A stretch of DNA of 64,000 nucleotides from sequence record NZ_CP124633.1, one strand, 5' to 3'. The stretch's first letter is position 1. Each line of letters begins with the position of its first letter. This stretch comes from a plasmid. Shown one piece after another: positions 13,937 through 54,597 of the stretch. Below the pieces are notes generated by a model that searched no databases, was not told the DNA's origin, and was given only the letters and a program-made list of their open reading frames with translations. Position numbers and translations under genes: made by a program.

Positions 13937-14108
13937 GACGTGCTCCTGGAGTGGTTCGAGTAGAACCGCACGGTTTCAAGAGCAGGAGGAGGGCCTCAAC
14001 CGAAAATACTAGGCCTAGCACCAGTGAATTTCTGGTGGTTGGCGGGTTTAGAGACACGTATGGACGTCTGGGTGTATATTTCATATATATTTCTAAGGGA
14101 GACGGCTG

Positions 14109-14420
14109 ATGCTTAGAAACATCTCTATTGGAGTTTTGCTAGCCATGGCTGCTATGTTGGACAGTTATGGGGTGGCTGCCGCTACATTACGATGCGGGTC
14201 GGCAATTGTTAGTGAGGGTGACTTGATTGATGATGTGCTTAGGAAGTGCGGAAACCCTGATAGCCGTAAAGTTGAAGGGCCCGCAGTGGATGGTAGTGGC
14301 TATATAGTGCGGGGGGCTGCTACTGTCGAAAACTGGGTATACGGACCAAGGAATGGTTGGTACCAGAAGCTTAGGTTTGTCGATGGAAGGCTAGTTCAGA
14401 TAAAAGGCAGTATGGACTAG
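14109..14420 (+). CDS. Small secreted protein, DUF2845-like, in low-GC cargo.
   Basis: RBS AAGGGAGACGGCTG before the ATG. Signal peptide, two Cys, about 100 aa. Local GC about 40%. Confidence 0.55.
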   Translation: MLRNISIGVLLAMAAMLDSYGVAAATLRCGSAIVSEGDLIDDVLRKCGNPDSRKVEGPAVDGSGYIVRGAATVENWVYGPRNGWYQKLRFVDGRLVQIKGSMD

Positions 14421-14422
14421 GG

Positions 14423-14460
14423 TATAGCCGTGGATGGTGTGTTTTTCATCCACGGCTATA
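14423..14460. terminator. Bidirectional hairpin between convergent genes.
   Basis: Perfect 14-bp inverted repeat TATAGCCGTGGATG / CATCCACGGCTATA with a 10-nt T-rich loop. Confidence 0.5.
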
Positions 14461-14464
14461 AGTC

Positions 14465-15440
14465 TCATCCGGCAGATGATATAAGGGTAAGGATATTTGC
14501 GATTGGTAGGCCTTGTGCGTCGGAAATAAACACGGTTGCACTAGCGCCTGCACGAGAAACTATCTGTTGTAGGTTGCTCGGATTAGACATGCCGCCGTTG
14601 TAATTGGCTTGGAATTGCTTGCTGGAACTTGCTATGTCTAGAAGTTCAAGTAGAGTGCTTTGGTTGGCGGATTGTGCGGAGTTCATACTGATTGATGTGT
14701 TTGATCCTGCCGCTCGCAGCGCCTGCTGGATGTTGTTTGAAGTGAGTTGGGCACCATTAAAGTTGGCGCTGAATTTTTTAGTGTTGCCCGCGATGTTGAT
14801 GGCCTGTAAAAGGATGGATATATTCGCCGCCTGAGCGGTGTTGACGCTGATACTGGTTCCCGAGGCCGCAGCGCTGATCGCTTGCTGAAGGTTGTCTGCT
14901 GTTAGTTGTGCACCATTGAAGTCGGCGCTAAATTTTTTCGTGTCTTTGGCAGAGTTGATGAGGGCTAGCAGGGTGCTTATATTAACCGCCTGAGCGGTGT
15001 TGACGCTAATGGATGTTCGGGTTCCTGCGGCGTCTAAAGCTTGTTGAATGTTGTTTGAAGTAAGTTGAGCGCCATTGAACTCTGCGCTGAATGTTTTTGT
15101 GTTACCTGCTGCATGAATAGTCTGAAGAAGGGCGGTTATATTTGCCGCTTGTGCGGTGTTGACGCTTATGCTAGTGTTTGTTCCTGCCGCATTCACTGCT
15201 CTAAGTAGGTTGTCGCTGCTGAGTTGGGCTCCATTGAATTCTGCGCTAAAACTCTTTGAGTTGCCTGCTGTAGATATTGCGGAAAGAAGTGTATTTATAT
15301 TAATGGCTTGTGCGGCTATTGTGGATACTCTGGTTAATGATCCTGCTAAGTTTATGACTTCCTGAAGGTTGTTGGCAGTCAGCTCTGCGCCGTTGAAAGT
15401 TGTTGAGAGGTTTTTTGTGTTTTCTGCAGTTGTTGTTGCC
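14465..15440 (-). repeat. About 6-7 tandem copies of a ~144-bp coding repeat.
   Basis: Visible at both DNA and protein level inside the repeat-protein gene. AT-rich. Confidence 0.7.
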
Positions 15441-15575
15441 TTGAGAAGAGTGTCTCATATTTAATGCTTGCGCGTTGCTTATGCTGATGGTTGTATTCTT
15501 TCCTGCTTTTGATAGGGCCTCTAGCATGTTGCTTGGATTTAGAAGGCGTCCGTCGAAATCAAGGATAAGCTTCAT
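14465..15575 (-). pseudogene. Tandem-repeat protein gene (about 48-aa units), disrupted by a +1 frameshift near 15445-15455.
   Basis: ORF 15300..15575 (MKLILDFDGRLLNP...TISISNAQA) and ORF 14465..15196 carry the same repeat family, SISVNTAQAANIxxLLxxIxxAGNTKxFSAxFNGAQLTxNNIQQAL. Manual translation shows the downstream frame open up to ~15450. It is joined to the upstream ORF by a single-nt change in ...GCATTAAATATGAGAC... Confidence 0.6.
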
Positions 15576-15706
15576 CTCAATGCTCCGCTGTGACCTAACG
15601 TTAAAGTCTTGGTGTGAGTACTTCCTAGGCTGAATGAGTTGGCTACAAATCTCTTTGCCTTATGTCAATGTCAGGCATTCGCTGTGACCAATATCATTTT
15701 TTTGAG

Positions 15707-17188
15707 TCATTTTTCACAGCTAGCTATCTGCTCCTTCAGCTTTCTGTCGTCCACGTACCGCTGCATGATCGATAGCACCAGGCTATTGATGGCGAGGATC
15801 TTCATCGCGCGGGTCACTGCGACGTAGATCAGGTTCAGCTCATCGTCGCGCTTGCCTGGGTCGGTGTCGGGGGCCAGCGGGTCCGCGTTGAAGTCGTCGT
15901 ACAGGCAAACGAAATCCCATTCCAGCCCCTTGGCCTTGTGTGCGGTGGTCAGGGTGATCGTTGCGTCCAGCTCATCGTCAAGGGTCAGTGAGCGAAGCTC
16001 AAGGATCCGCGCCGGTAGATCAGGGTAGGTCGAGATGATCTTGATCGAGCGCGCCATTTCACTGTCCTGGCTGATCTCGGCGATCTCCACGTACTGGGTG
16101 TAGTCGCGGTAGTCCCGGAGCAGCTTTTTGTTCTGGACGTTTTGGCGCAGGCCTCGGCTGAATGCGTACAGATCCTCCAGGTCGCGCAGCGAGTAACTGT
16201 CGATACCGCCTACCCAGTAGAACTTGGGCGCCGGATTATTGCGCACACGCTGCAGGGCATTTTCGATGACGCCGATAACGGTGCGGTGAATGAAAGTGCG
16301 GTGAGGAAGGTCCGCCGGGAGGGACTTTTTCACCAGCGTCTGCGGGCCCAGTCCTTGAAGTTTCCGTGTCTCGCCCTTGTAGGAGAGGATGATGTTGGCC
16401 ACGTGCGCAATCGCGGGGCCGAACCGCCAGCTCTGGGTCAGGTAGTGCTCCTCGGCGCCGACCATCCAGTCGCTGTTCAGGGCATCTTCCGCGCCTCTGA
16501 ACCGGTAGAGCTGCTGGTGGGGATCGCCGACGATAGCCATTTTGATGCGCTGCCAGTGGGCAATGTCCGCGATCACCGGGTTGATGTCCTGTCCCTCGTC
16601 CAGGAACATGCAGTCGAAGCGCTGGCTCAAATCGGGCTTGCTCAGTTGATACAGCTTCAGGTAGCCGTCATGGGGCATCAGCATGCCGGTGTCCTGGAGA
16701 TCTACCATGCGCCTCCAGACTACTCGCGCCATGTCCAGGCCCTGCTTGAGGAAGCGTTCCTGGGCACTGGTGAGGAACGCCTTGTCGCGGAAGCGCGGGA
16801 AGTGCGGTCGGCCGAGTTCCGCGTCGGCGCTGGCCATGTAGTTGTTCAGCGTGGCCAGCACGTCACGTACCAACTCCCAGTCTTGGGTATCGAGTCCGCG
16901 GGCGATATCGGTCAGACGCAGGTTCTTCGTCTTCTTGTGGGCGTACTGGATGCCGTACACCGCATGAGCCAGGCTGTGGGCGGTCTTGCAGACTACGTTG
17001 CGGGGAAACTTGCCCTTCGCGGCTTTCTCCACCGAGCTGTTGTAGCAGAGATAGAGGATTCTCAGGGTAGCGTTCGCCTTGGCAAAGCCCACCAGGGTGG
17101 TCGTCTTGCCAGTGCCGGCGAAGGCCCGCACCAGGATCTTCGATGCCTTCGACTGGATGATCGGTGACTGTTCGTGAGTCCACTGCAC
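15707..17188 (-). CDS. UvrD/Rep-family DNA helicase.
   Basis: Walker A AGTGKTTT, DEGQD motif, C-terminal helicase motifs. GTG start with AGGAG RBS. Confidence 0.85.
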   Translation of the reverse strand: MQWTHEQSPIIQSKASKILVRAFAGTGKTTTLVGFAKANATLRILYLCYNSSVEKAAKGKFPRNVVCKTAHSLAHAVYGIQYAHKKTKNLRLTDIARGLDTQDWELVRDVLATLNNYMASADAELGRPHFPRFRDKAFLTSAQERFLKQGLDMARVVWRRMVDLQDTGMLMPHDGYLKLYQLSKPDLSQRFDCMFLDEGQDINPVIADIAHWQRIKMAIVGDPHQQLYRFRGAEDALNSDWMVGAEEHYLTQSWRFGPAIAHVANIILSYKGETRKLQGLGPQTLVKKSLPADLPHRTFIHRTVIGVIENALQRVRNNPAPKFYWVGGIDSYSLRDLEDLYAFSRGLRQNVQNKKLLRDYRDYTQYVEIAEISQDSEMARSIKIISTYPDLPARILELRSLTLDDELDATITLTTAHKAKGLEWDFVCLYDDFNADPLAPDTDPGKRDDELNLIYVAVTRAMKILAINSLVLSIMQRYVDDRKLKEQIASCEK

Positions 17189-20958: not shown

Positions 20959-21536
20959 GGATTGGTCACCAGCAGGTTGACGCCGAGGACTTGGCTGAGG
21001 TGGCGGGATACTGTCCTACGGTATTTGGCGGCAGGCGCGCCGCCGGCGGGGCGGTGGTAGCGGCCGGCGACCTGGATCCAGTCCACCGGTTTCCCGGGGG
21101 CAGAGGCGTACAAGGCGTCCCGCTGCTCGATCAGGATGTCGGAGGTGGCGTCCAGGTTCTTGTACGGATCCAGGGACTCGCAGGGGCTGGAGAAACGATG
21201 TCCGTTCCAGCCGATGTTGACCTGGCCGAGGCCGGAATCGACGCTCTTGGCCCCGTAGAGGTTGATCGCCGCGAGTAGCGCTGTGCAGGCGGCGGTGCGG
21301 GTCGCGTAGTAGTAAGATTTCCCGGCGACGTTCAATGTCCAGGGCCAGGGAACGTATTCGCCGCGCAGCAGGACCTTGCTCTCGGTCAGCGCGACCGAGT
21401 AGAGCACCTCGGCCGGAACCCCTTTGGGCAGGGCGATCTGCTTGTACGCCGGCGGAGGATCCACGGCGGCCTGAACGATGTTGGCCAGAACCAGCAGGGC
21501 GGCCAGTTGGAGGGCGCGGATTACAGACGTTGCCAT
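20955..21536 (-). CDS. Lytic transglycosylase (SLT domain) for conjugative transfer.
   Basis: Signal peptide. SLT-like motifs ES...GLGQVN...Y. Overlaps neighbouring genes. Confidence 0.7.
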   Translation of the reverse strand: MATSVIRALQLAALLVLANIVQAAVDPPPAYKQIALPKGVPAEVLYSVALTESKVLLRGEYVPWPWTLNVAGKSYYYATRTAACTALLAAINLYGAKSVDSGLGQVNIGWNGHRFSSPCESLDPYKNLDATSDILIEQRDALYASAPGKPVDWIQVAGRYHRPAGGAPAAKYRRTVSRHLSQVLGVNLLVTNP

Positions 21537-22286: not shown

Positions 22287-22979
22287 CTATGGTTGGATGC
22301 GAACGCTGCGCGAGGCGCCGGCGACGTCGAAGTGCGCGGTACGATCGTCAAGGTCGGTCAGTCGCCAGGTCGTGCCGGCGACGGCATCGCCCTGGCGAAT
22401 GAGGTAGATCTGGCTGAGCTGGGTGGATCCCGGAGGTGCAACCGACAGAAACCGTTCGCCCCCGCGATACTCCACGCCGAGGATTGAGAAGGGCGGAGGC
22501 TCGATCGGCTTGGGTTTCGGCTTGGGCTTGTCAGGGAAGGCACCGCGCTTCGGTGGAGGCACGATCAGCGGCGGAGCCTTGGCTTGCTTCTCTTGCAGCG
22601 TGCGGACAGAACCGTCCAGCGTCTCCACTGTTGCCTTGAGCACCAGGAGATCGCCGGCCGAGGCGGTGGTTTGAGCCAGGTTCTCGACGGCGTCGGAGGC
22701 CTGCTTGGCGAAGGCCTGCGCGGCGTCAATGCGGTTGGACAGTGCCTGCTGGCCTGAGCGGAAGTCCTCGTTGCTGACCAGGTGCTGTCCATCCACGGCG
22801 TCGAGGCGCTCGTCGACTCGATTCAAGCGAGCCAGGATCGCCTCTAGCGAGGTCTTTTCCGCGGCACTGTCCACGCCTGATCGGAGCTGAATGAGTTGGT
22901 ACTGCTGGTAGCTCAGCAGGCCGGCCATTGCCGTCAAGCAGAGGCCAAGAATCATTGATGCAGGGGATGGGCGTTTCAT
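22287..22979 (-). CDS. Membrane-anchored coiled-coil protein with a Pro/Lys-rich linker.
   Basis: GAGG RBS. N-terminal TM helix, then coiled-coil region, then PKPKPKPIEPPP linker. Confidence 0.5.
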   Translation of the reverse strand: MKRPSPASMILGLCLTAMAGLLSYQQYQLIQLRSGVDSAAEKTSLEAILARLNRVDERLDAVDGQHLVSNEDFRSGQQALSNRIDAAQAFAKQASDAVENLAQTTASAGDLLVLKATVETLDGSVRTLQEKQAKAPPLIVPPPKRGAFPDKPKPKPKPIEPPPFSILGVEYRGGERFLSVAPPGSTQLSQIYLIRQGDAVAGTTWRLTDLDDRTAHFDVAGASRSVRIQP

Positions 22980-23430
22980 GAGTGTCCTCGCGCGAAGCCA
23001 GAGACACCCTCTCAGACTGCCCCCATTGAGGCAGTAGGAAATACTCGGTGAGTGGGGGTGGGATTTTTTTGGATAGGATTCTGGCGAATCGCCGGGCCTG
23101 ATTCGCTATGCGAAGATCAGTCGACTCTGGGTGCCCTTCACACGCATCTAGGCTGCGTCATTTCTGGTTAACACTGCTTCGAGGAAGCCCTAGGCTATGA
23201 ATACAGACCTTCCCCAGCTCGAACAAACCATCATTGAGATAGCGTGCCAGGAATTGGTTGAAGCTGGTCAGCCAAGCCAAAACTCCCTGTCATGCTATGT
23301 CGCATCTTTCGAGTCTACTCATCTGGCTTGACTCGTTCGATGGCTAAAGCCGCTTGTGCAGTGGAGCCTGGCTGAGGCGGGACACTAGCTCAAGATGAGC
23401 GTGGCCGTTGCTGGGGTGAGTTACCGACAA

Positions 23431-24765
23431 TCACTCGTCTTCGAACTCCGCCTTTCCCTTCTGGACCATTGAGATGGGAGGTATAAAAAACATTGTCCGC
23501 TGCGCCGCCGGCATCAGGATATCTGAGGACTTGATGCTGCTGCCCTTTCGCCGCTTGGTGCCACTGTCCTTGTCGTAAACCTCGATGTCTTTGCACAGAA
23601 TTGGCATGTGGAGGGCCTCGCGAACGATGCTTTCGTTGGCCATCGTGCTGTTGGCCATGCTCTTCATCATGTCCTCGAACGTCTGTACAGGCTGTTGGTA
23701 GATCTGCCTGGGCAGCAGCTCGGAAAGCTCTCTCTCGATGCGTTTTCCGGTGACGTTATCGAAGAAATGCTCTTCACCGAAGCCAAGGTTTTGCTGATCG
23801 GTAACCTGTATATCGCGCTTAGTGTCGTACCCCACGAATAGCGCGGGCGTCATTGCGTGCGAAAAGTGGTTGCCGTACTTCCAGTGGATTTCCTTCATCA
23901 CAGCGTTGGCGCGATAGCTCTTGGCGAGATGAATGAACCAGTAGGTGCGAGGGTTAGCACCAAACGGCGTTATGAAGAATACCGTCATGAACTCTGCGCC
24001 GCTTTCTTTCAGTATGCCCTCTGCCAGGAAGCGTTGAATGAGGTGCTGCCATTCATGACGCATCGTGGCCTTGAAGGAAGGGAGTTTAGCCCACGGAATG
24101 TATTTCTCAAGGTCAATATTCTGGAGCGCCTTACGGTTTTCCTCCCGCTCAGAAAGGTAGTCAATCAGGCTGTCAACGTTGAACGTCAGCAACACCTCAG
24201 CGTTTCTCACTTCCTGAAAGATGGCGCGGATGCTGGAGAATGGAACATCTTTGTAAGCGTACTGATCCAACAAGAAAATTGCGCGTTGAGAGAATTTTAA
24301 TTTCTTGATCTGATTTATTAGCGCAGGGAGAGCGTTGGTGAAGCGTGACTTTATCGGGAATACGTCCTTGTCTATTAAGTGCGAATATCCTTTCGCGTTA
24401 AGTACTGCGTTCAGATAATCTATGTTGTCCTTTTTGATGTCTACAAAATAGTACTTGGCAATTACTTCGCGGTCTTGTTTTCTCAGGGTGTTAATTTCCG
24501 CAACTGTCTGGCGAACGGTCTCCAACGCGATGATCGGCGATCCATAGTGGATGCCTATACCATCATCGTCTTTGTAAATACCCCCTCCACAGAACCCATC
24601 GATGATGCTGATTCCTATTCGAGGGATCATCTGGTTGCTCATCACGACCGTTATGTAGGAGCGAATATAGTCCTGAATTATCTTGTGTTTGATCTTGCTG
24701 TGGGGATTAATCTGAGGATATGTCCCGGTGGAAATATTCCACTTGTACTTTTCATCCTTGGCCAT
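23431..24765 (-). CDS. TcmP-like protein (partner of Gp37/Gp68), paralog B, 444 aa.
   Basis: N-terminal motif KIKHKIIQDYIRSYI...ISIIDGFCGGG and central blocks are shared with the 396-aa paralog upstream. AAGGA RBS. Low-GC region. Confidence 0.55.
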   Translation of the reverse strand: MAKDEKYKWNISTGTYPQINPHSKIKHKIIQDYIRSYITVVMSNQMIPRIGISIIDGFCGGGIYKDDDGIGIHYGSPIIALETVRQTVAEINTLRKQDREVIAKYYFVDIKKDNIDYLNAVLNAKGYSHLIDKDVFPIKSRFTNALPALINQIKKLKFSQRAIFLLDQYAYKDVPFSSIRAIFQEVRNAEVLLTFNVDSLIDYLSEREENRKALQNIDLEKYIPWAKLPSFKATMRHEWQHLIQRFLAEGILKESGAEFMTVFFITPFGANPRTYWFIHLAKSYRANAVMKEIHWKYGNHFSHAMTPALFVGYDTKRDIQVTDQQNLGFGEEHFFDNVTGKRIERELSELLPRQIYQQPVQTFEDMMKSMANSTMANESIVREALHMPILCKDIEVYDKDSGTKRRKGSSIKSSDILMPAAQRTMFFIPPISMVQKGKAEFEDE

Positions 24766-24782
24766 CCGGTAAGTCCTTTAAC

Positions 24783-25525
24783 TCAGGCTAAATTCAAAAG
24801 AGGTATTTCATCCCAGGTCTGGCCGTTTAGCAGCCGCCCGTTTGCTTTTTTAGAGCGCTTGACTCCATCCGCCCCCCATCCGCCCCACTGCTTGAAAAAG
24901 AACGCGGAACCGGAGATATCGCACTGACGATGAATGTTGTCGACCCATTCTTGCTGCATGGGACGCGCTTTCGCGCCTGACTCGCCTCCAACGATCACCC
25001 AGTGGATATCGGTCAAGTCTATTTCACCGAGATCTTCCAGAAGGGCTCCGCCGAGAGGAAGCGGATTGTGGCATTCACACGGCGCAAGCAGTCGATACGA
25101 GGAACGCCATAGGCCTTGTCTTCGACCGATACTCCAAGCCAGGCGTTGGTAGGTGGAACGCGCTTGCTGAAGTAGTCAGCCAATCGTTCCGCGCGCTTTG
25201 TCAGGATTTGAAAGGTATGTTGCGTCGCCTCACGAATGACGTCAAAAATCTGATCGATGTAATGGTCAGGGACTTTCTCGTGAAACAGATCCGACATGGA
25301 GTTTACAAAATAGATAGTCGACTTCTTGCGCTGAAGCGGTTCGCGAAGTTTCTCTGGACGCAGGCTAAGCTTGAAACCATTTTCATAACCTGGAGTGCCC
25401 ATGGCCTGCAGTCGGTGCGCCATGTTCTCGGCATAACAATGTTTGCAGCCCGGCGATACCTTGGTGCACCCCACAATGGGGTTCCAGGTCATTTCTGTCC
25501 ATTCTATGCTCGTCTGGGTACTCAT
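24783..25525 (-). pseudogene. Phage Gp37/Gp68-family (DUF5131) gene, split by a -1 frameshift in a C-run at about 25034-25040.
   Basis: N-terminal ORF has the signature IEWTEMTWNPIVGCTKVSPGCKHCYAE and ends ...LSAEPFWKISVK*. Shifting one base gives ...[32 protein letters not shown]...FFFKQWGGW, the canonical family C-terminus. The likely true start is MSTQTSIEWT at 25523-25525. Confidence 0.7.
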
Positions 25526-25757
25526 TGCACTGTAACTCCTGTCGTGCGCGATGCTCATGTAAATCGGGCGCGAATCAAATGACTATCACCTTAGTGATTG
25601 GCCTTTCTGTTCGAGGTCCTGTCAAATTGTAAGTGTAACACATCTATCCAGATAATCTCAGCTAAATAAGAATTGCTTAATATGGTATTTGGCTTACAGT
25701 CTTATGGGGTGTTAAAACTTTCTTGTCGTCGGCTGGTTTGTGGGCTGTTGGTAGAAA

Positions 25758-26948
25758 CTAAAAAATCTCTTTTGGCGAAAATGATTCTGCGCAGAGCACC
25801 CAGCGCTCACTTTTCCTCGGCCAATGAGGCCTTACTGGATTCTTTGTCCGCTTTCGAACATCCGCATCCAGATTTATGATTTTCCCTTCTTTAGCTAGAT
25901 CTTTGAATGCGAGTTGCAGATCCGTCGGATAGAGGTCGGTTTCCTCAAGGAAGCTTGCCCAGCAATCATTGTCCACGAGCAATGGTGTGGCGGATAGGCG
26001 TGTCAGCAAATACTTTTTGGCGAGCATCCTGTTGTCCCGAACATTGACTGGCTCGGGCTGATCCTCAGGTGAGGAGAAGAGGTCATTAACAGGAAGCCTC
26101 TTGCTCGATTGCCGCCTGAGCTTGGTCTCGAACTGACTGACACGCTGAACCATATCCATCTGCTCGGCGGCCTCTTTGAAGACAATTAGCCCTTTAGAAT
26201 GTCGCGTGAGATAGATCAGGAAGTACAGGACGCGGTCCATGCCCGGCCGCTCAACGGTAACGTACGCAGTCTTGCCGTTGTAGATATCTCCTACCGCCTG
26301 GCGGTATTGGGAAACAATAATTTGTCGCCGCTCGGTTGCCGACTCTTTGCCTGAAAACGTGATTGCCTTACCGAGCAACTCTTCAACGTTCGCTTGCTGG
26401 GCCGTCATCGACATTGCTCGGTTGAGGAAGTCGTACATCAGGTTGATGAGAAACTCGGCTCTGTTCAACGCCAATAGCGGCGCCAGTACCGGTGCGTTGA
26501 TAACCTTTCGCCAGCCCTTGGGATCAATGAAGAAGAAGGTGAAGCCAAGTTTGGCCCAGCTTGCGATATCTTCGATTTTCGTCGTGTAGTCGCCGTGCAT
26601 GCAGCTGGCGTCTACGACACTGCCCGTATCGTTGGAAAGGAATCTCTGCAGCTTCGCAAAAGCATTGTCGTTTTTTTCGATATACAGGGCGCGGAATCTC
26701 ACCTTTGCGCCATGCTGCTCTTCAAGCGTCTTCGCGCAATCCTTCATCAGGCTCAACGAGATACCAATGGAGGTGTCCCGCAAGTCATCAGACTCTTCCG
26801 ACCAGGGGCCGGCGAAGCAGTCGACGTAATTGATCACCTTCTCACTGCGGCCGATGATCATGATCAGCCGCTGCAAGTAAGTTCTCAGAATGGTGTGCTT
26901 GACGTATGCCTGTTCTCTGCCCTGATATTCTATCGGCATCAAAGACAT
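25758..26948 (-). CDS. TcmP-like protein, paralog A, 396 aa.
   Basis: Start MSLMPIEYQ at 26946-26948 with RBS CAAGGAGGTGAA. The track's first ATG is inside the RBS. Motif YVKHTILRTYLQRL...INYVDCFAGPW. Confidence 0.6.
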   Translation of the reverse strand: MSLMPIEYQGREQAYVKHTILRTYLQRLIMIIGRSEKVINYVDCFAGPWSEESDDLRDTSIGISLSLMKDCAKTLEEQHGAKVRFRALYIEKNDNAFAKLQRFLSNDTGSVVDASCMHGDYTTKIEDIASWAKLGFTFFFIDPKGWRKVINAPVLAPLLALNRAEFLINLMYDFLNRAMSMTAQQANVEELLGKAITFSGKESATERRQIIVSQYRQAVGDIYNGKTAYVTVERPGMDRVLYFLIYLTRHSKGLIVFKEAAEQMDMVQRVSQFETKLRRQSSKRLPVNDLFSSPEDQPEPVNVRDNRMLAKKYLLTRLSATPLLVDNDCWASFLEETDLYPTDLQLAFKDLAKEGKIINLDADVRKRTKNPVRPHWPRKSERWVLCAESFSPKEIF

Positions 26949-27129
26949 TTCACCTCCTTGTTGACCCATCTCGGTCTCCTGCCACGGATCGGCTAATCAC
27001 GTTGAGCGACGTCGTAGTGGCTATACGGTATCGTAGCCCTCGTGGCGTGGCTATGGGGGCGGGGTATGCTTAAGTGCTGGTCGCTGAAACCAGTAGAGCG
27101 TCGCGGTGTGAATCGCCGCAGGTTTCGTG

Positions 27130-27612
<483 letters not shown>

Positions 27613-27662
27613 ATTTCGAAAAACTCGCATTTATTTCGAAAGCCTACAACTTCGATAAGCAT

Positions 27663-27693
27663 TATATAAAAAAGGCCACTCAAAGGTGGCCTA
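27663..27693 (-). terminator. Rho-independent terminator for the SNF2 helicase operon.
   Basis: 7-bp stem AGGCCAC / GTGGCCT with a 6-nt loop, followed on the minus strand by a T6 run. Confidence 0.8.
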
Positions 27694-27698
27694 TCTGT

Positions 27699-29984
27699 TC
27701 ATGCTGCAATGAGTTGTCGTGCCAACGCCATCTCCACCGAATCTCCGTCTTGGTTCAATGAGTCGAGACCTGACTCGGGAACGTCTCCCGACGTGCTCTG
27801 AGCCACAGCGATCTTCTTGGCCATCAGTTGCAAGCAGGTGATCTGCGAGCTGCCGGCGTAGCCGAAGAACACCACCCGCACCGGGTGCCTCTGCCCGATC
27901 CGCCACGACCGCCGCGCGGCCTGCTGCAGGGTGTACACGTTGTATCCCGTCTGCAGGAACGCGATGGTCGGGAAGTCGAGCAAGTCCAGGCCGGTCTTCA
28001 CCAGTTCCGGGTTGGTGATCAGCACATCGATGCCGCGTTCAACCTGGTCGAGGATCCAGTCCTCGCGCCGAGAGGTAACGACCGAAGCACGTAGCACTGC
28101 CACCTTCAGCCCAGCCTGCTCGAGCACTTTCTTCAGCCTGGACGTGGTGTCGCGCGTTCCGCTGTAGACCGTGTAGGCCAGGACCTTGCGGCCCTTCGCT
28201 TTCTCCTCGAGGCAGAGGTCCAACAGCGCCTGTTCCTTTGGCATCAGTTGCTCGTCGCCGAAGATCGCTGGCACGAAGGCCAGTGTGTCCCGGGTTCGCG
28301 GATGCTTGACGATCTCCGGTCGGAAACAGCAGTCCGGCCAAGCCAGCAGCACGTTGAGGACCACGCCCAGGAGCGTGGTATCTCGTCGCGCCAGAGCCTG
28401 GCGGAGCTCCGCTGTCAGCGTGGCCGCCAGGCGCTGATAGGCCGAAGCCTGATCCGGCGCCATGGGCACGTCGACGAGCTCTTCCTGGTAGTCGGGCAGT
28501 ACGTTGCCGCCGATGTCCCTGAGCTTCAGGAACACGGTGAACGGCAATACGAAGCGGTGGATGCCCTTCGGGCCGAAGCCGGGAGCCTTCACCGTGCGTA
28601 CCGAGAGCTTCTTGCCCCGGGCTGTCTTGTGCGAGTCACCATCGCGTTCGGTGTAGATGTCCTTGAGCACGCCGTGGTCGCGCATGAACGACATGGCTGC
28701 TGGAGCCATGCTGCCACGCGCGTTGGGCCGGTAGCCGTCCTCGATCATGCGCTGGGTGAGGATGCGGAACAGGAGGTAGAACAGGTCGTCGGCGTAGCCG
28801 CCCATGAGCGTTCCGGTCAGCAGCACGGTTTTCCGTGCCTTGGCTGCGAGAACGCCCATGGCCTGGCCCTGGGCCGAACTGCTGTTCTTGTACTCATGCC
28901 CCTCATCCACCACCAGCAGGTCGAAGTAGCCATCAGGTAGGTAGCGCTTGATGAACTCGGTCGGTTGGTAGCCTCCTTCGCCGAAGCCGAACTCGATGTT
29001 CGCCATCGATCGCTCCATGCGTTTGGCCTGCCGATCGCTGAAGACGAAGTTGCCCTTGGCGTCCATCAGGTTGATGAACTCCGAGACGTTGTCCACCAAC
29101 ATCGTGGCCAGGAAGTCCTCGCCGAAGTCGTTCAGCAGGCGCTCCGCCCTGACCGGGCCGATGGTTGGAATCCGACACATCGACTTGAGGATCGTTGCGC
29201 GCCGGCTGCCGCCGTCAGGCTTGCCTGGCCGGATCAGCGTCCAGAGCGCCCCACGGCAGGAGGAACAGGTACGTCGACGGTCACCACGCTCGAACTCCTC
29301 CACCGTGACCAGGTTGCCTTCCAGGTCCTCAAGGACCTGGCCGCAATCCGGGCACGCAGCGAGCAATTGACCGCCAGCGGCGCGTTTCCTCCAGCAGGCG
29401 AGTCGCCAGTGGAAACCCATCCGCATCCGCACGCGGCCGAGGATGAAGAACTCCTGGCGCCCGTCGTAGGCGTCGCCCATCTGATCTCGCAGCTTGAGCA
29501 GCTTGAGTAGAGTATCTGGGCCGTTGAGTACCCAGACGCGGGCGCCTGGGATGGTCTCCAGTATCTCGCGGCGCCACTTGTAGACCAGGTGCGGCGGAGA
29601 GACGACCAGGGTCCGGCGATAGCCGGCCGCGTGCATGACCGCTGCGACAGCGATGGCCATCATGGTTTTCCCGGTGCCCATCTCGGCGTTGATGATCCCG
29701 GCCTGCTCGTTACGGTCCAGCAGCAGGGCGGTGATGGCCTGGACGACCTCGGCCTGGGCCGCGAAGGGCTTGCGCTTGAGTCGGTCCATCACCAACTGGC
29801 GGTGAGCGTTGTCGGATCCGGTATAGACCGGGGGGTTGGAGCGATTGAGCGACTCCAGGAGCTCGTCGCCGAACTCGTCGATGAAGTCGGTCAGGTTGAT
29901 GTTCAGGGGGAGGCGGCCAGGGCGGCCGGTTGGGTCAGAGCGTTCATGTGCATCTCCTGCAGGTGAAGGAAGAAAGCAGGGCAT
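27699..29984 (-). CDS. SNF2/DEAD-like superfamily-2 helicase with Zn-ribbon.
   Basis: Motifs AEMGTGKT, DEGHEYKN, and a helicase C-terminal QAARRSWRIGQ. CxxC...CxxC cluster. Confidence 0.85.
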   Translation of the reverse strand: MPCFLPSPAGDAHERSDPTGRPGRLPLNINLTDFIDEFGDELLESLNRSNPPVYTGSDNAHRQLVMDRLKRKPFAAQAEVVQAITALLLDRNEQAGIINAEMGTGKTMMAIAVAAVMHAAGYRRTLVVSPPHLVYKWRREILETIPGARVWVLNGPDTLLKLLKLRDQMGDAYDGRQEFFILGRVRMRMGFHWRLACWRKRAAGGQLLAACPDCGQVLEDLEGNLVTVEEFERGDRRRTCSSCRGALWTLIRPGKPDGGSRRATILKSMCRIPTIGPVRAERLLNDFGEDFLATMLVDNVSEFINLMDAKGNFVFSDRQAKRMERSMANIEFGFGEGGYQPTEFIKRYLPDGYFDLLVVDEGHEYKNSSSAQGQAMGVLAAKARKTVLLTGTLMGGYADDLFYLLFRILTQRMIEDGYRPNARGSMAPAAMSFMRDHGVLKDIYTERDGDSHKTARGKKLSVRTVKAPGFGPKGIHRFVLPFTVFLKLRDIGGNVLPDYQEELVDVPMAPDQASAYQRLAATLTAELRQALARRDTTLLGVVLNVLLAWPDCCFRPEIVKHPRTRDTLAFVPAIFGDEQLMPKEQALLDLCLEEKAKGRKVLAYTVYSGTRDTTSRLKKVLEQAGLKVAVLRASVVTSRREDWILDQVERGIDVLITNPELVKTGLDLLDFPTIAFLQTGYNVYTLQQAARRSWRIGQRHPVRVVFFGYAGSSQITCLQLMAKKIAVAQSTSGDVPESGLDSLNQDGDSVEMALARQLIAA

Positions 29985-30051
29985 GCACGTCCCTTTCGGG
30001 TATCGGCATACCCTGCAGGGTGGAGTGGAAGGAATCGCCGTGGGGGCGAGG

Positions 30052-31497
30052 TCAGTAGTCGCTGGGGAGCAACAGGGTGGTCGAACTGCGATCAGCCTCA
30101 GTGATGATCCAGAGCCTGGATTCGCCGCCGGCGTCGATGTCGTAGGACGACAGCAGCCGATCGCCGAACTTCAGGGCTCTCTGGTTGGTGTTCCAGTCTT
30201 CCTGGTCCAGCGTCCCCCAATCTCCCGCCAGATGGCGGTTCAGCAAGGGCGCTGGGTTGAGTTGACCGATTTCCACCAGGTGGCTAACGGCAGCGGTCAT
30301 TACGACCTGGCCAGGGTTGAACAGCAGCGGTTCCGGGGTAGGCTCAGGTTGGGGCTCTTCAGCTTCTTCCGTGGTTGCGGCCGAGGAGCTGATGGTCAGC
30401 ACGCGGCCCTGATTGACCGAGGAAGGTGTCATTTCCCATGCCCGGATGATCGGGATGAAACGGTCGGTGAGGATCCTCACCTCGGTGATGTTGCCGTCGT
30501 CGTCTTCGGTGAATTCGGTCTTGCGAACCTTGTCCTTGTAGGTGTCACCCTTCACGACCAGGATCCGGCCCGACTTCGATTGCACGACGCCGGATATCGC
30601 GCCGGCGGCCAAGGCCAGGGCCAGGTGCCAGCGAGACAGCTCGCGGACTGGTGGGCGCGGCTGCAGCCCCGCTTGCGCGAAGTGCAGGTTGAAGTCAGGC
30701 CAGAGACCTCGCAGCCGCTGGATTTCACCGGCGAACTGCTCCGGCTCCAGGGTTACTCGGTAGAAGTGCTCCAGCTCGCTGGTGGCCGGCAGAACCACGT
30801 AGGGTTCCCATGGCCAAGCCGCTGGAATTTCCTCGGCCTTTTCCTGGCCCGCGTCGATCGCCTGCAGGCGAGACCTCACCTGATTGGCGTCCGCCCGGGC
30901 CAGGTCCTGCCGACGGACCCGGATGCCGAAGATCACCACCTGCTTGAAGGTAGGATCCGCGGCTGCGTAGATGTGCAGGCCAGTGAAGTGGTTGCTCAGC
31001 CAGCCAGACAGCTCATCGTCCAAGACGTAGTGAGGAACAATCAGGACCATGACGCCGCCGTACTGCAGCAACGGCAGGCAGCGCTGGTAGAACGCTTTCT
31101 CCAGACGCCGGCGGCCGCTGCCCTGGTACTGCGACGCACCGGAGTGGTCCGCCACCAGGTCGCCATAAGGCGGGTTGAGCCAGAGCAGTCCGAACGACTG
31201 CCTGCTGATCATGGTGTCGAAAAGGTCACTGTGCAGCACTCGGTCAAGCAAGCCACGAGCGTGGTCGGCGCGCTCGCGGTCGTACTCGACAGCGAGGGCT
31301 TGGACCTGATCGCGGCCGAGGGTGTGCGCTGCCTCAGCCAGGGCAACCCCCTCACCGGCGCAGGGATCACAGATCCTCATTCTGCCCGACGGGGCAGGAG
31401 CGAGGGCCTGCAGAGCGCGTTCGAGGGTGACCTCATCGGTAGGGAAGTAGCCGTTGCGTGCAAAGTTGCGCGCCAAGCGCGGGAACATGAGGGCCAT
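30052..31497 (-). CDS. N6-adenine DNA methyltransferase (motif I DPCAGEG, motif IV NPPYG) with a C-terminal extension.
   Basis: AAGGAGG RBS. 481 aa. Directly upstream of the SNF2 helicase in the same operon. Confidence 0.8.
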   Translation of the reverse strand: MALMFPRLARNFARNGYFPTDEVTLERALQALAPAPSGRMRICDPCAGEGVALAEAAHTLGRDQVQALAVEYDRERADHARGLLDRVLHSDLFDTMISRQSFGLLWLNPPYGDLVADHSGASQYQGSGRRRLEKAFYQRCLPLLQYGGVMVLIVPHYVLDDELSGWLSNHFTGLHIYAAADPTFKQVVIFGIRVRRQDLARADANQVRSRLQAIDAGQEKAEEIPAAWPWEPYVVLPATSELEHFYRVTLEPEQFAGEIQRLRGLWPDFNLHFAQAGLQPRPPVRELSRWHLALALAAGAISGVVQSKSGRILVVKGDTYKDKVRKTEFTEDDDGNITEVRILTDRFIPIIRAWEMTPSSVNQGRVLTISSSAATTEEAEEPQPEPTPEPLLFNPGQVVMTAAVSHLVEIGQLNPAPLLNRHLAGDWGTLDQEDWNTNQRALKFGDRLLSSYDIDAGGESRLWIITEADRSSTTLLLPSDY

Positions 31498-50728: not shown

Positions 50729-52705
50729 TCAGCGTTCGGCAAGGCTTGCGGCCAAAAGCGCACGGTTTCCGTCGACCTGCTCGGGCTCGATGAGGTCCTG
50801 GGCAACCTGGCGTTTCGCGTTGAGCAGTTGCCACAGCTGCTCGTCGATCGTGCCCTCGACCAGTGGGATCTTCACCACCACCATGCGGAGCTGGCCGTTG
50901 CGGTACGCGCGGTCCTCGGCTTGTTCCTGCTGACCTGGAGTCCAGGGCAGGCCGAGGAAAAACACGTAGTTCGCCGCAGTGAGGTTGTTGCCCGTCCCGG
51001 CGGCCGCCGTGGTGCAGATGAACACCCGGCAGTCGGGATCCTGCTGGAAGCGATCGATCGCTTTCTGCCGCTTGGTGAGCGAGTCATTGCCCACCAGCGT
51101 GACGCAGCCGTGCCCGGCCTGCTCGCAGAGTTCTTTCAGCGCAGCCACGGTCGGCTTGAACTCGCAGAACAGGATCACCTTGTCCTCGGCGTCGAGCTCG
51201 CTCAACAGGTCCATCGCCACGCGAACCTTCACTGTTTCCAGGTAGCGCCGCAGCGCGCCGAGTCTCGCGAAGACCGGTCGGTCCTCGAGGCGCAACAAGT
51301 CGTATTGCTGGCGTTCCTCGGTGGAGAGAGCCACCTTCAGCAACTGCCGCTGCTTGCCCTTGAGATTGGGCAGTACGTCCTTGCGCCTGCGCAGCATCCA
51401 GTCGCCCAGTTCCGCCCGCAGGCTCTGGCGGAACTCGGGGTTGCCGGCGAAACGGTCGCAGAACTCTTTCAGCGGCAGTTGGCCTATTGGGTGGCCCGAA
51501 AGGCGCAGCAGGGTGTGCAACTCGGTCTCGCGGTTGAGAACCGGCGTGCCGGTGAGCAGGTAGCGATTCGGCACCTGGGCGGCGATGTCGAAACCGTGCC
51601 GCGTGCATTGCGCCGTCGGTTCCTTCATCCGTTGTGCCTCGTCGATTACCATCACGGCGAAGCGAGAAGCGTTGGCGACGAAGGGGCTCAACTGCTCGTA
51701 GTTGACCAGGATCCACTGAGCCTCTGGGTCGTCCTGCTGGATGGTCACGATGGCCGAGGGATAGACCTCCTGGATCTCGCGCTGCCAGTTGATCAGCAGG
51801 GTAGCCAGGGTGATGACTAGGATTGGTCTGCCGGCCGCGCGGATCGATGCCGCAATGACCGCCTGGCGGGTCTTGCCCAACCCCATGTCGTCGGCCAACA
51901 GGGCACTCGTTCTCTGCAGCAAGTGAGCGATGCCGGCTGGCTGGTGAGCCAGTAGCGAGTAGCCCTGCAGTGCCGACTCGATATCAGCTGAACTGTACTC
52001 GGTGCGCTCGATCTCCGGCACCGCGGCGAGGTAGATGTCACAGGCTGACTCGTCCTCCAAGGATGGCGCTGCCGGTTCCTGCTGTGGACCGCCGATGCTC
52101 ATGCTGGGCAGCTCGGTCGCCGGCGCGAAACTACCGTCGCTGAGCAGCTCCTGGACGGTATCCAGTATCTCGAATTGTTCTTCGGCGAGGCCAAGCTCCA
52201 GGATCAGGTTGCTGCGAAGCAGCTCAGGTGTGGCGTCGATGCGCCAGGAGCTCGATGGACGCAGGAACACCCCGCGCATACGCCGAGCCACCGCCACCAC
52301 ACCGGGATGGAACTCGCCTGACAGCAGGACGCCGCCTTCGGCCAGCGGCGCGATGCGCAGCAGCAAACCCCAGGTGAAGGCCTGTCGGTCAAGCGAGGCC
52401 TGTGCAGATTCGACCATGCCGCTGAAGTCCCGCCAGGACTGTGAGTGGAGGCCTCCAGCGAGCTCGGCGAGTCGGTTGTATAGAGAGTCAAGTTCGGGCA
52501 GCAACTTGGCCTTGGGGACCCGCCAGTAGCGGTGCAACGGATGCTCCCGGGCGCTGATGAAGAAGCCGGACAGTTCCAGCAGCGCGCGGTTGCTGCCTGC
52601 GATGTAGGGGATCTTCAAGCCGAAGTCGTAGCCGTCGAAGATAGCCCGCTGCAGAAGCGTCGAAGGAGTTGCGGAGGTACGGTTGACCAGGCGTGGACGG
52701 TTCAT
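50729..52705 (-). CDS. SNF2-family helicase (second copy).
   Basis: Motifs DDMGLGKT, DEAQ, and a helicase C-terminal QAEDRAYRNGQ. ATGA overlap with the upstream gene. Confidence 0.8.
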   Translation of the reverse strand: MNRPRLVNRTSATPSTLLQRAIFDGYDFGLKIPYIAGSNRALLELSGFFISAREHPLHRYWRVPKAKLLPELDSLYNRLAELAGGLHSQSWRDFSGMVESAQASLDRQAFTWGLLLRIAPLAEGGVLLSGEFHPGVVAVARRMRGVFLRPSSSWRIDATPELLRSNLILELGLAEEQFEILDTVQELLSDGSFAPATELPSMSIGGPQQEPAAPSLEDESACDIYLAAVPEIERTEYSSADIESALQGYSLLAHQPAGIAHLLQRTSALLADDMGLGKTRQAVIAASIRAAGRPILVITLATLLINWQREIQEVYPSAIVTIQQDDPEAQWILVNYEQLSPFVANASRFAVMVIDEAQRMKEPTAQCTRHGFDIAAQVPNRYLLTGTPVLNRETELHTLLRLSGHPIGQLPLKEFCDRFAGNPEFRQSLRAELGDWMLRRRKDVLPNLKGKQRQLLKVALSTEERQQYDLLRLEDRPVFARLGALRRYLETVKVRVAMDLLSELDAEDKVILFCEFKPTVAALKELCEQAGHGCVTLVGNDSLTKRQKAIDRFQQDPDCRVFICTTAAAGTGNNLTAANYVFFLGLPWTPGQQEQAEDRAYRNGQLRMVVVKIPLVEGTIDEQLWQLLNAKRQVAQDLIEPEQVDGNRALLAASLAER

Positions 52706-54597
52706 CGGTCTTCCAACCGAGTGAGCAGCCACTTCGCCGTGGCTTCGGCGAGGCCCGCCTTCCAGCGACCATCGGCGAAGCGTGTCATGTGGGCGGTCAT
52801 GTCGGGCCAGTTCAGGTTCGTCGCTATGGCTCCAGAGCGAATCCGTTCCATGAACCAGTGGTATGCCTGGCCGGCAGGGGAATCGGCCGGCACGGGGTTA
52901 TTATCGAATTCGCGCAATTGCACCGTGGAAAGGTGCTGGGGATTCCAGGGCCTACCTAGAGGCTCGCCATGTTCACGCCTGAGCTCCAATTCGGCAGAGG
53001 CCAGTGGGCGGCCAGCCTCACGTACTGAGAGCAGTCGGCAGTCTCCTCGATAGGCGGCCTGGTCGTAGCTATCTATGCAATGGGCCAGCGCGATATGTTC
53101 GGCGTAGAGGGCGGCAGGGCAGCGGAGCTCGACGATCTGCAGGCCATTGGGGCAAGCGATAAGGCCGACAGGCAGCATTCCCTCCCAGGTGGTGTACTCG
53201 TCGGTGTCGACCAGATCGGGCAGGCTGCTCTGCACTGCGGCGCGCAGTTCCCTCTGGACCTGGTGGTAGTCGTCCACCAGGTTGCCAGCCTGTCGGTAGG
53301 TACAATGACCCAGGTACGCCTTCAGGGCGCTGCGCGCCTGCCGAACAACCTGTGAGCTCCCCTGGTCGAGGGCGGTATAGAACTCCTTGATGTCTCTCAG
53401 GCGTGCAGTGATTGCAAGCCATGCCGGATCCTGCCAATCCGACGGGCAGCCGTTGAAGAGACGGTTGTAGTCGGGCTTGGCGTTGTGAACTTGCCAAGGG
53501 ATCGCATTGTAGGCGGCATAGAATGCTGTCCATTGAGCGCGAGTGATCGGCCGCCGGTTACCTAGCGATGCTGCCATAAGGAGAGTATGCCATCCCGAAT
53601 ATCGGCCTTCCCGTTTGCGATGGAAGAGAGCTCCTCCCGCACGGCCGGGACTGACGTGACTAAGAAATCGAATCGAGGCCCGTGGCGCCTGAAATAGCCA
53701 GGCGAAAAAGTTGATGACCGAAATCCCTTCGTCCGCGACCTGCCCAAGAATACGGGCCATATCGAGGTTCAAGTCGCATGGCACGGCGGCGGCCTGCGGT
53801 CGTTCACTGTCAAGCAGGGAAAAAGGGCAAGGAAGGAAATGGCAGATGCTCTCGCCGTTGTCGTTGGTCGTCGTGTGGGGCCAGACTCCCTCCTCGCAAT
53901 CCACCAGTAGCGGCGTCAAGACCGGCTGAGTCTTCAGCATTTGCAGCCGGCGCATCTGGTCGCCTTGAGCCAGCCAGTTGTAGAGCTGGGGCGAGAGGCA
54001 CCGAACCGAGCGGATGGCGAACAGCAGATCTTGGTCCAGGACCTGTCTGAAGGTTCGCAAGACCGCTCCGATCTGCTTCAAGTAGAACCGGCGTCTCGGT
54101 GAGTAGTATCGATTGTGGCTGACTGATGGATACTGACTCTTGGGGAATGAGCCGAGGTCCTGACGCGCTAACTGAGTGGCCAACCCCTGTGCCCTCTGGG
54201 TGTAGGAGCTGAGCACAGGAACGGCATCGTCGAACTTCTTGAGGCGCTGCAGCAGCTTCAACGCTCCGGCTGGGGACGGCGTGCTTGCAGGGATACGATG
54301 GGCAGGTTTGCACTCCCACGCACCGATCAGTTGACCGTCGAAGACCTGGAGCAGAGGCCCTGCGCGCATGATGGTGTAACGCACACCATTATCCGCAGCG
54401 ACGGTGATGCACCAGCACCTGGTCGTAGAGGTGCTGCGCAGGTAGTGACGGATGAACTTGGTTCGAGCTGTCCCTGCGAGGGAGAAATGCGTTGCCCAGG
54501 TGTTGGCAACGGCGAGCTGCCGCTCGCTGTAACGGGCCAGAGATGGATCCTGTAGCGGCCCGCTAGGGGAGGCGTTGTCGAGTGGTGCCACGCGCAT
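52702..54597 (-). CDS. Large hypothetical protein (631 aa), translationally coupled to the SNF2 helicase.
   Basis: Long ORF with mixed composition and several Cys/His pairs. No motif recognised by eye. Confidence 0.55.
   Translation of the reverse strand: MRVAPLDNASPSGPLQDPSLARYSERQLAVANTWATHFSLAGTARTKFIRHYLRSTSTTRCWCITVAADNGVRYTIMRAGPLLQVFDGQLIGAWECKPAHRIPASTPSPAGALKLLQRLKKFDDAVPVLSSYTQRAQGLATQLARQDLGSFPKSQYPSVSHNRYYSPRRRFYLKQIGAVLRTFRQVLDQDLLFAIRSVRCLSPQLYNWLAQGDQMRRLQMLKTQPVLTPLLVDCEEGVWPHTTTNDNGESICHFLPCPFSLLDSERPQAAAVPCDLNLDMARILGQVADEGISVINFFAWLFQAPRASIRFLSHVSPGRAGGALFHRKREGRYSGWHTLLMAASLGNRRPITRAQWTAFYAAYNAIPWQVHNAKPDYNRLFNGCPSDWQDPAWLAITARLRDIKEFYTALDQGSSQVVRQARSALKAYLGHCTYRQAGNLVDDYHQVQRELRAAVQSSLPDLVDTDEYTTWEGMLPVGLIACPNGLQIVELRCPAALYAEHIALAHCIDSYDQAAYRGDCRLLSVREAGRPLASAELELRREHGEPLGRPWNPQHLSTVQLREFDNNPVPADSPAGQAYHWFMERIRSGAIATNLNWPDMTAHMTRFADGRWKAGLAEATAKWLLTRLEDR

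Follow-up and report, generated by a model that had tools for sequence, protein, structure and literature searches.

The 64,000-nucleotide (nt) stretch of the plasmid record NZ_CP124633.1 that was analysed here (the window) carries, on its minus strand, a cassette of one DUF5131 gene of the Gp37/Gp68 family and two genes for TcmP (three-Cys-motif partner protein), which come from different, anciently diverged subfamilies; we call the upstream protein up-type and the downstream one dn-type. The cassette is a member of the PADLOC candidate class PDC-M30/PDC-M41, and its three-gene version is a recurrent, conserved architecture in which DUF5131 is far more conserved than either partner. As to function, we favour, with slightly less than even confidence, a nuclease-free module for the modification of nucleic-acid bases that takes part in the conflicts of mobile elements, phages and hosts. 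The three same-strand open reading frames (ORFs), with flanking proteins of 396 and 444 amino acids (aa), are present as an earlier note on this DNA had described them, and the features that matter most are as follows.

25758-26948, minus strand: upstream, up-type TcmP, 396 aa, with a modelled RlmJ-like class I methyltransferase fold and C-terminal winged helix.
24783-25525, minus strand: DUF5131 / Gp37-Gp68 gene, in two ORFs (25019-25558 and 24783-25016); repaired product 247 aa.
25436-25468, minus strand: three-Cys motif GCTKVSPGCKHCY, C20-X6-C27-X2-C30, read from the sequence.
25043-25045, minus strand: site of the frameshift, with three C in the run as against four in intact copies.
23431-24765, minus strand: downstream, dn-type TcmP, 444 aa, beginning 17 nt past the DUF5131 stop.

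The assignment of the central gene to the Gp37/Gp68 (DUF5131) family and of its flanks to TcmP, already made in that note, is strongly supported by searches with hidden Markov models (HMMs). PF07505 (gathering cut-off 28.9 bits) matches both halves of the DUF5131 gene, with 229.5 bits (5.6e-68) and 107.1 bits (1.4e-30), and the repaired 247-aa product reaches 367.5 bits (4e-110) over model positions 1-243. TIGR04474, the TcmP model (cut-off 53 bits), matches the up-type protein with 99.9 bits (2.3e-28) and the dn-type protein with 233.4 bits (4.3e-69), in both cases from model position 1 to about 262 of 263, and the adjacency to a PF07505 gene by which that family is defined is found on both sides. 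The PADLOC models PDC-M30A/B and PDC-M41A/B match adjacent genes as well (A at 2.7e-27 and 1.1e-12, B at about 1e-73 and 1e-28). The up-type ORF is open as far as an ATG at 26969 (403 aa), and its homologs begin at 26948; the probable start of DUF5131 is the ATG at 25525, which has AGGAG just ahead of it. Measured from this ATG, the gap to the up-type gene is 232 nt, and that between DUF5131 and the dn-type gene is 17 nt. An internal promoter or other regulatory element in the longer gap was considered but is not supported: its coding strand has no consensus promoter, and a ribosome-binding site is the only feature conserved across five orthologous gaps.

The two flanking proteins had been called clearly paralogous. 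By BLASTP they align in the N-terminal motif only (21% identity over 66 residues, E 0.003); the paralogy holds at the level of profiles, each built from 40 homologs, which hhalign joins with 93% probability (E 3.5e-7, 15% identity) over 342 collinear columns that extend beyond the N-terminal motif and include the C-terminal domain. On sequence evidence the two TcmPs are homologous along their whole length, yet they come from two old subfamilies, and a recent duplication is not the case. The earlier description of the partner as duplicated must therefore be given up, since the subfamilies are old, each of them pairs alone with DUF5131 elsewhere, and the three-gene set recurs. A protein identical (100%) to the up-type protein is from P. 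aeruginosa.

Evidence for recurrence comes from three surveys. With DUF5131 as bait and one genome taken per species, 80 loci from many phyla were collected (53-89% identity), and an iterated local TcmP HMM places a TcmP gene beside DUF5131 in about 68 of the 80 species; the combination of up-type with dn-type is seen at none of these 80 loci. Among the 19 loci with TcmP downstream of DUF5131, seven carry a second, short TcmP (276-316 aa), and at three loci a gene for a LexA-like helix-turn-helix (HTH)/S24 repressor lies between an upstream TcmP and DUF5131. These three are betaproteobacterial (L008, 4432-8107; L012, 4071-8118; L019, 3078-8033), and their order is upstream TcmP (about 284 aa in two, a 402-aa ORF in L012), LexA-like HTH plus S24 peptidase, DUF5131 and dn-type TcmP. 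With such a repressor among its genes, the module may in some versions be under SOS-linked control.

The second survey used the up-type protein as bait in metagenomes, together with look-ups of named homologs, and yielded 88 loci. Up-type followed by DUF5131 accounts for 44 pairs and the reverse order for 12. There are eight triads in the order of the window (up-DUF-dn), three of them redundant copies of one P. syringae-group locus, seven in the order DUF-dn-up, Cellvibrio sp. BR among them, one locus in which the up-type gene is followed by an inverted dn-DUF pair, and several more loci that break off at a contig edge. Many loci with a plain DUF-dn pair were also found, both TcmP subfamilies occur at no fewer than 12 of 80 metagenome loci (at least 12/80), and P. 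brassicacearum has a triad, judged by locus tags and shared contigs. When orthologous triads were compared with the copy in the window, identity was 65-98% for DUF5131, 40-77% for up-type and 32-84% for dn-type. The survey that the earlier note had called for, of TcmP-DUF5131-TcmP triads near defence systems, thus finds the triad in Pseudomonas, Cellvibrio and metagenomes, with one Gabija neighbour.

That rearrangement and deep divergence have not separated the three genes argues for a functional unit. Each TcmP subfamily also pairs alone with DUF5131, and the simplest picture is therefore of one catalytic core common to two alternative or cooperating partners. Less complete loci exist. One orthologous locus (L002) has a broken dn-type gene, and in P. 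aeruginosa a lone up-type gene (L091, 6001-7170; 59% identical), with DUF5131 absent within 6 kb, adjoins genes of SIR2-STAND and AbiJ-like type; possibly it is left over from a larger locus, or it represents a form that needs no partner.

The DUF5131 gene of the window is itself broken. An intact frame of about 245-248 aa is absent, the gene being split by a one-base deletion: the coding strand reads gcg gag ccc ttc tgg ... taa, and one more C in the CCC run (25043-25045) restores the 247-aa frame. The homopolymer frameshift noticed earlier is therefore real as a feature of the record, namely one C missing from a run of four, as comparison with two near-identical loci brings out. In L003, a Logan assembly of run ERR233205, the same segment is 99.1% identical, and in L096, a metagenome contig, the locus is 99.2% identical; DUF5131 is intact in both, and the one additional C is the sole difference from the window in this gene. 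The exact intact 247-aa protein is found on at least 996 contigs, whose sources call it Gp37/Gp68 family protein and assign it to P. aeruginosa or to several species of Pseudomonas, and none of the fragments of the window is present in a collection of 15 billion proteins; the frameshift is thus confined to this one assembly, where it reflects either an error of sequencing or a null mutation of recent date. If real, it would leave the cassette inactive in this strain. Across 9 kb the only other indels relative to L003 are one of 6 nt, in frame, and one compensating pair; the assembly is not full of homopolymer errors. The 6-nt indel lies at 22530, inside the 22287-22979 gene, and the compensating one-base indels, which are separated by 6 nt, at 21090-21096 within the 20955-21536 gene. 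From L003 the backbone diverges by about 1%, the cassette at only some six positions. Programmed frameshifting and phase variation were rejected as explanations, given that the run is just three or four bases long, that intact copies are the norm and that the fragments are unique to the window. The 90%-identity cluster that holds the intact protein also contains many site-specific integrases of 321-349 aa (representative 323 aa), which looks like a clustering artefact.

AlphaFold2 models of the two TcmPs, made on 40-sequence alignments, are confident, with pLDDT values of 80.4 (dn-type) and 83.9 (up-type). The closest solved structure is that of the rRNA N6-methyladenine (m6A) methyltransferase RlmJ (PDB 6qe5; homolog 2oo3), with which about 200 residues align at about 3 A, and the models have the RlmJ-type Rossmann fold with N-terminal motif X and helical insert. 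After a disordered linker, both end in a C-terminal winged helix of three helices and two strands, a region that gives weak matches to the Pfam family GMT-wHTH; in the dn-type protein the methyltransferase fold covers residues ~1-297, the linker 299-335 and the winged helix ~336-420. RlmJ makes m6A2030 in 23S rRNA; mutagenesis or structure shows that it cannot do without K18 in motif X and D164 in motif IV, which are catalytic, and that H19, H42, S100 and E118 hold S-adenosylmethionine (SAM) (PMC3814359). Its active site is very similar to those of the DNA m6A methyltransferases T4Dam and M.TaqI; the enzyme acts on RNA, needs an RNA hairpin only and is inactive on single-stranded DNA (PMC3814359). 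In the TcmPs, RlmJ K18/H19, H42, S100, E118 and D164 match invariant residues in register, as judged by motif and predicted strand position. The correspondences are listed in the order RlmJ, dn-type, up-type.

Motif X: VLKH; IKH (K26-H27); VKH (K17-H18).
Motif I: LDTHAGAGRY; IDGFCGGGIY (consensus DGFxGGGxY); VDCFAGPW.
YPGSP segment of RlmJ: YPGSP; YGSP; DTSIG.
Acidic residue: E118, end of strand 2; D109, end of strand 2; E91.
Motif III: D143-G-F; no conserved Asp; G-D120-Y.
Motif IV: LIDPPY, end of strand 4; LLDQY (D167), end of strand 4; D142-P-x-G-W.

A broad TcmP HMM, built locally, aligns RlmJ residues 15-66 in the same register, weakly (7.1 bits, E 1.6e-4 in a one-sequence search). The link between TcmP and RlmJ is thus drawn from fold, motif register and this weak match, and on the models TcmP shares the fold and active-site layout of RlmJ without belonging to the RlmJ family. 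Sequence searches of the PDB with the dn-type TcmP, repaired DUF5131 and the profiles A1 and A3 gave nothing usable, DUF5131 having no match at all, and a fold search of viral structures (BFVD) gave generic methyltransferases only, at a template-modelling (TM) score of 0.34 or below.

For DUF5131 the question is whether it is a radical SAM protein. It matches the NCBIfam model TIGR04471, 'radical SAM mobile pair protein A', at 8.5e-27 over about 185 positions (15-212), with 94 bits where the cut-off is 355 bits; Pfam Radical_SAM gives no match at E up to 10. RadicalSAM.org lists DUF5131 within the radical SAM superfamily as Megacluster-5-2, and its neighbours in Megacluster-5 are the MJ0683-like and spore photoproduct lyase clusters (PMC9477430). 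Four cysteines, C20, C27, C30 and C202, show no variation among 31 homologs, and identity remains at 53-98% across Pseudomonadota, Bacteroidota, Acidobacteriota, Chloroflexota and others. The three-Cys motif, which had been written as C-X5-C-X2-C, actually reads C-X6-C-X2-C, and its cysteines are presumed to be ligands of an iron-sulphur (Fe-S) cluster. We infer that DUF5131 is an Fe-S enzyme related to radical SAM proteins; what links it to TIGR04471 and Megacluster-5 is the HMM alignment below the cut-off, the listing as Megacluster-5-2 and the three invariant N-terminal cysteines.

Outside the cassette, the genes that directly flank the module in the 80 species, 142 in all, are a mixed group. 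The commonest are HTH_3 (7), ResIII (5), DEAD (4), N6_Mtase, Methylase_S, Eco57I and Peptidase_S24 (3 each), and TIR and UvrD (2 each); restriction-modification genes of types I and IIG are represented, as are TIR and helicases; no constant third gene and no constant nuclease was found among them. An HMM search likewise detected no nuclease domain in the three cassette proteins, and the nuclease of a restriction-modification system is thus missing from the cassette. In the P. syringae group the triad lies directly downstream of Gabija (GajA 2.6e-242, GajB 3.9e-222). The locus concerned (L088, 634-9510; P. syringae group genomosp. 3) has an up-type protein 77%, a DUF5131 98% and a dn-type protein 84% identical to those of the window; the triad follows a complete Gabija and a small Xre/ParS-type gene, and 141 blocks of the protein collection index its up-type protein. 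The S. meliloti TcmP SMa2243 is listed next to the Hna defence helicase SMa2245 and is upregulated together with it (PMC12445080).

Mobile elements carry the module in several forms. In Halomonas it lies in a Tn7-like transposon next to the candidate system PDC-S28; at this locus (L001, 10156-12738) the PDC-S28 gene, which encodes an 861-aa DinG-like helicase, is convergent to the pair. A 526-aa gene upstream of the Halomonas DUF5131 was considered as a further TcmP and rejected, as it has no HMM match and only traces of a zinc ribbon; the locus is a pair, not a triad. At another P. aeruginosa locus the module stands behind the resolvase gene of a Tn3-family mercury transposon. Three loci of P. 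aeruginosa / P. abyssi (L004, 6235-9317; L005, 210-3292; L006, 5000-8075) have a gene for a 323-aa tyrosine recombinase followed by DUF5131 and a dn-type TcmP; in this recombinase-linked version DUF5131 is 88% identical to that of the window and TcmP only 53%. The tyrosine recombinase is probably no part of the system: its 90% cluster also contains a protein named 'Cointegrate resolution protein S' (TnpS), and at the P. aeruginosa locus it lies beside a Tn3-family transposase and mer genes; most simply, it is the resolvase of the transposon.

DUF5131 is encoded in 181 phage records, mostly of Mycobacterium, Gordonia and Burkholderia phages, often near replication genes, and a tblastn search of these records with the dn-type TcmP found almost nothing. 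Several mycobacteriophages (records H4, H8, H23 and H30) have next to DUF5131 a gene with the annotation AAA/ASCE ATPase, and in phages DUF5131 may have another partner. Gordonia phage PantheRoc (L086, 4001-5733) encodes DUF5131 as gp40 and, convergent to it, a TcmP as gp41 (TIGR04474 3.9e-51). Both genes are annotated hypothetical, and the pair lies between integrase and immunity repressor, where the defence genes expressed by prophages usually sit. In IMG/VR, TcmP adjoins DUF5131 on 39 of 80 contigs, and on 13 of the 14 where DUF5131 is at least 60% identical.

On the reading that we favour, each TcmP would recognize its target through the winged helix and a base-flipping methyltransferase pocket and would carry out chemistry, probably SAM-dependent, on the exocyclic amine of adenine; methyltransferase chemistry is suggested because the catalytic pair of RlmJ, the Lys-His of motif X and the Asp of motif IV, is kept. 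DUF5131 would bind an Fe-S cluster through C-X6-C-X2-C and carry out chemistry of the radical-SAM type, either on the base that TcmP targets or on its methylated form. With two different TcmPs to one DUF5131, there could be two target specificities or a heteromeric enzyme. DNA would be the most likely substrate, and the role either defence or protection of the element's own DNA; the winged helix, the neighbourhoods rich in restriction-modification genes and the closeness of DUF5131 to DNA-repair proteins within the radical SAM network lead us to prefer DNA somewhat over RNA. A more specific version, doubtful as it stands, sees in the triad a new modification machine, with an ultra-conserved radical-SAM-type subunit steered by two different RlmJ-like, adenine-flipping methyltransferase/winged-helix subunits to make an undescribed modification of adenine, or of another base, on two classes of target, in the service of nuclease-free defence or of evasion of restriction.

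Several observations weigh against base modification by such a module. RlmJ methylates RNA and is inactive on single-stranded DNA, and a DNA substrate is accordingly a guess. TcmP has no Pfam match to the RlmJ family at E up to 10, and with either TcmP profile set against one sequence, that of E. coli RlmJ, hhalign gives no significant match (probability 2-4%). The up-type protein has Trp in place of the second glycine of motif I, and the dn-type protein has D-Q-Y, not D-P-P-Y, so that two prolines of motif IV are missing; either TcmP could thus be catalytically changed or inactive. DUF5131 departs from the canonical radical SAM motif, C-X3-C-X2-C, and the invariant fourth cysteine, C202, could fully ligate the cluster, which would argue against radical SAM chemistry; variant spacings do occur among accepted radical SAM members. 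No discriminator of self from non-self and no effector is evident in the cassette. Finally, no functional or structural study of DUF5131 or TcmP was found in the literature, and the case for PDC-M30 as a defence system is one of guilt by embedding plus a weak correlation at the level of strains.

The alternative that survives best, although we think it rather unlikely, is that of a device for modification alone, which marks the DNA of the element or of its host against restriction, as an orphan hypermodification in the manner of phage Mom or of phage-borne methylases. It would account for the lack of a nuclease partner within the cassette or consistently near it, for carriage by an integrative and conjugative element (ICE), Tn7-like and Tn3-family transposons and prophages, and for the many phage copies, often close to replication genes or, in IMG/VR, paired with TcmP. 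It fits less well with the basis of the PADLOC listing, which is embedding in defence loci, and with the position of the module beside Gabija and, in one temperate phage, within the immunity region. Context alone does not separate host defence from the escape of an element from restriction.

It is improbable, but not absurdly so, that DUF5131 acts in the manner of viperin, making an antiviral or toxic product from a nucleotide or a universal metabolite, with the TcmPs as winged-helix, DNA-binding sensors or regulators. Identity of 53-98% over many phyla is what an enzyme with a universal small substrate would show; the TcmPs evolve fast, as sensors do, and three loci have the LexA-like repressor in the operon. 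A pure regulator is hard to reconcile with the SAM-binding and catalytic positions of an adenine-N6 methyltransferase, kept in full and invariant in both TcmP subfamilies, and the nearest radical SAM cluster acts on DNA. A shade less probable is modification of RNA, in which the TcmPs would methylate rRNA or tRNA as RlmJ does and DUF5131 would act like RlmN/Cfr or MiaB, so that translation, or sensitivity to antibiotics or toxins, is changed. The closest solved structure speaks for this, being an rRNA enzyme that requires only an RNA hairpin and rejects single-stranded DNA, whereas the C-terminal winged helix, the restriction-modification-rich neighbourhoods and carriage by mobile elements point to DNA, and the active site of RlmJ has itself been described as very similar to those of DNA m6A methyltransferases. 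Least probable of all is that the triad has no meaning of its own, being two ordinary pairs minus one DUF5131 or a chance juxtaposition, and the window a decaying pseudogene locus: plain pairs of each subfamily, solo up-type genes, the broken dn-type gene of L002 and the broken DUF5131 of the window could be so explained, but neither the change between three gene orders nor a fall of partner identity to 32-51% has parted the families, at least 996 contigs carry the intact allele, and seven of the 19 loci with a downstream TcmP join the dn-type to a second, short TcmP.

Two further features define the setting of the cassette in the window.

27102-27604, minus strand: IS3-family transposase remnant adjoining the cassette; its DNA is 85-87% identical to annotated IS3 / ISPst4-family transposases.
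23258-27692: cargo segment, GC about 0.50-0.55, between the backbone gene 22287-22979 and the SNF2-type helicase gene 27699-29984.

The flanks hold genes of an ICE backbone, for a TraG/TraD-type coupling protein, DUF4400, DUF3275, DUF3577, an SNF2-type helicase and a DUF6094 methyltransferase. Records of the pKLC102 type match window positions 22300-23257 at 98-99% and then diverge, and one record matches both flanks, with an S1 peptidase and an FxLYD protein among the annotated features under the match; it may hold a different cargo in the slot. Because the pKLC102-type records stop at 23257 and another record spans both flanks, the cassette and the IS3 remnant appear to occupy a variable cargo slot of a P. 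aeruginosa ICE of the pKLC102/PAPI-1 type. The remnant contains an rve-domain ORF at 27316-27576, the domain being identified on the equivalent ORF of L003; a terminator-like hairpin lies at 27673-27692. Both the IS3 remnant beside the cassette and the ICE cargo context were thus correctly recognized at the outset, the former borne out by the rve-domain ORF and the IS3-family DNA matches, the latter by the TraG/TraD, DUF4400, DUF3275 and DUF3577 genes and the matches of the flanks. The GC content is indeed lower in the cassette, but the figures given then, 45% against 63%, are replaced by 0.50 against 0.61-0.62 for the remaining window.

Directly beside the cargo slot, at 27699-31497, are the SNF2-type helicase (761 aa) and the DUF6094 methyltransferase (481 aa); the helicase (27699-29984) has weak matches to ZorD, BrxH and DpdE, and a second SNF2-type helicase is at 50729-52732. 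These helicases and the methyltransferase are probably part of the ICE backbone. A second low-GC patch (14000-17188, GC 0.48) contains a 243-aa ORF with a sub-threshold vWA-MoxR-associated (VMAP-M2) match, a DUF2845 ORF (14109-14420) and a 493-aa UvrD-like helicase (15707-17188) that is weakly GajB-like; possibly it, too, is inserted cargo.

Of the mobile-element proteins that are still without a function, DUF5131 is one of the best conserved; it is encoded in hundreds of phages, and the allele of the cassette is on about a thousand Pseudomonas contigs. If its partner is, as the models suggest, an RlmJ-like methyltransferase, the hypothesis becomes concrete: a radical-SAM enzyme together with a methyltransferase of the adenine-N6 type, with DNA or RNA as substrate. 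In its three-gene form the module is a natural experiment on the way in which partners determine specificity. A phage-defence or DNA-modification locus, as proposed in the earlier note, is plausible from context and predicted folds, and phage defence, if true, would matter for the treatment of P. aeruginosa infections with phages, PDC-M30 being one of the most frequent candidate systems there.

The nearest analogies of role are the phosphorothioation systems Dnd/Ssp, the 7-deazaguanine system Dpd and the prokaryotic viperins, which are also mobile sets of modification enzymes carried in defence islands, some of them Fe-S or radical SAM proteins, and engaged in conflict with phages. Their chemistry is known and they usually have a restriction partner or a defined antiviral product, whereas the triad has neither and shows no sequence relationship to them. 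RlmJ is a housekeeping gene product that acts alone, in contrast to TcmP, which has an added winged helix and DUF5131 as partner. The definition of TIGR04474 as the pair partner of PF07505 is silent on fold and function; the present analysis adds a fold like that of RlmJ, a Lys/Asp pair that is conserved and the division of TcmP into subfamilies, and the two-partner architecture and RlmJ-like nature of TcmP are, as far as we could find, undescribed. PDC-M30 and PDC-M41, with A = TcmP and B = DUF5131, are named phage-defence candidates of PADLOC, nominated since such genes recur embedded in known defence loci, and no mechanism has been proposed for them; in a published survey PDC-M30 was found in 32 P. 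aeruginosa strains, of which 68.8% were phage-resistant, a correlation only. The triad is thus already assigned to a named candidate, although not to a system of known mechanism, and the description of the known arrangement as a two-gene cassette of unknown function agrees with the PADLOC pairs and with the literature. In every source consulted the arrangement is a pair of one A and one B gene, whereas the window has two A-type subfamilies around one B gene.

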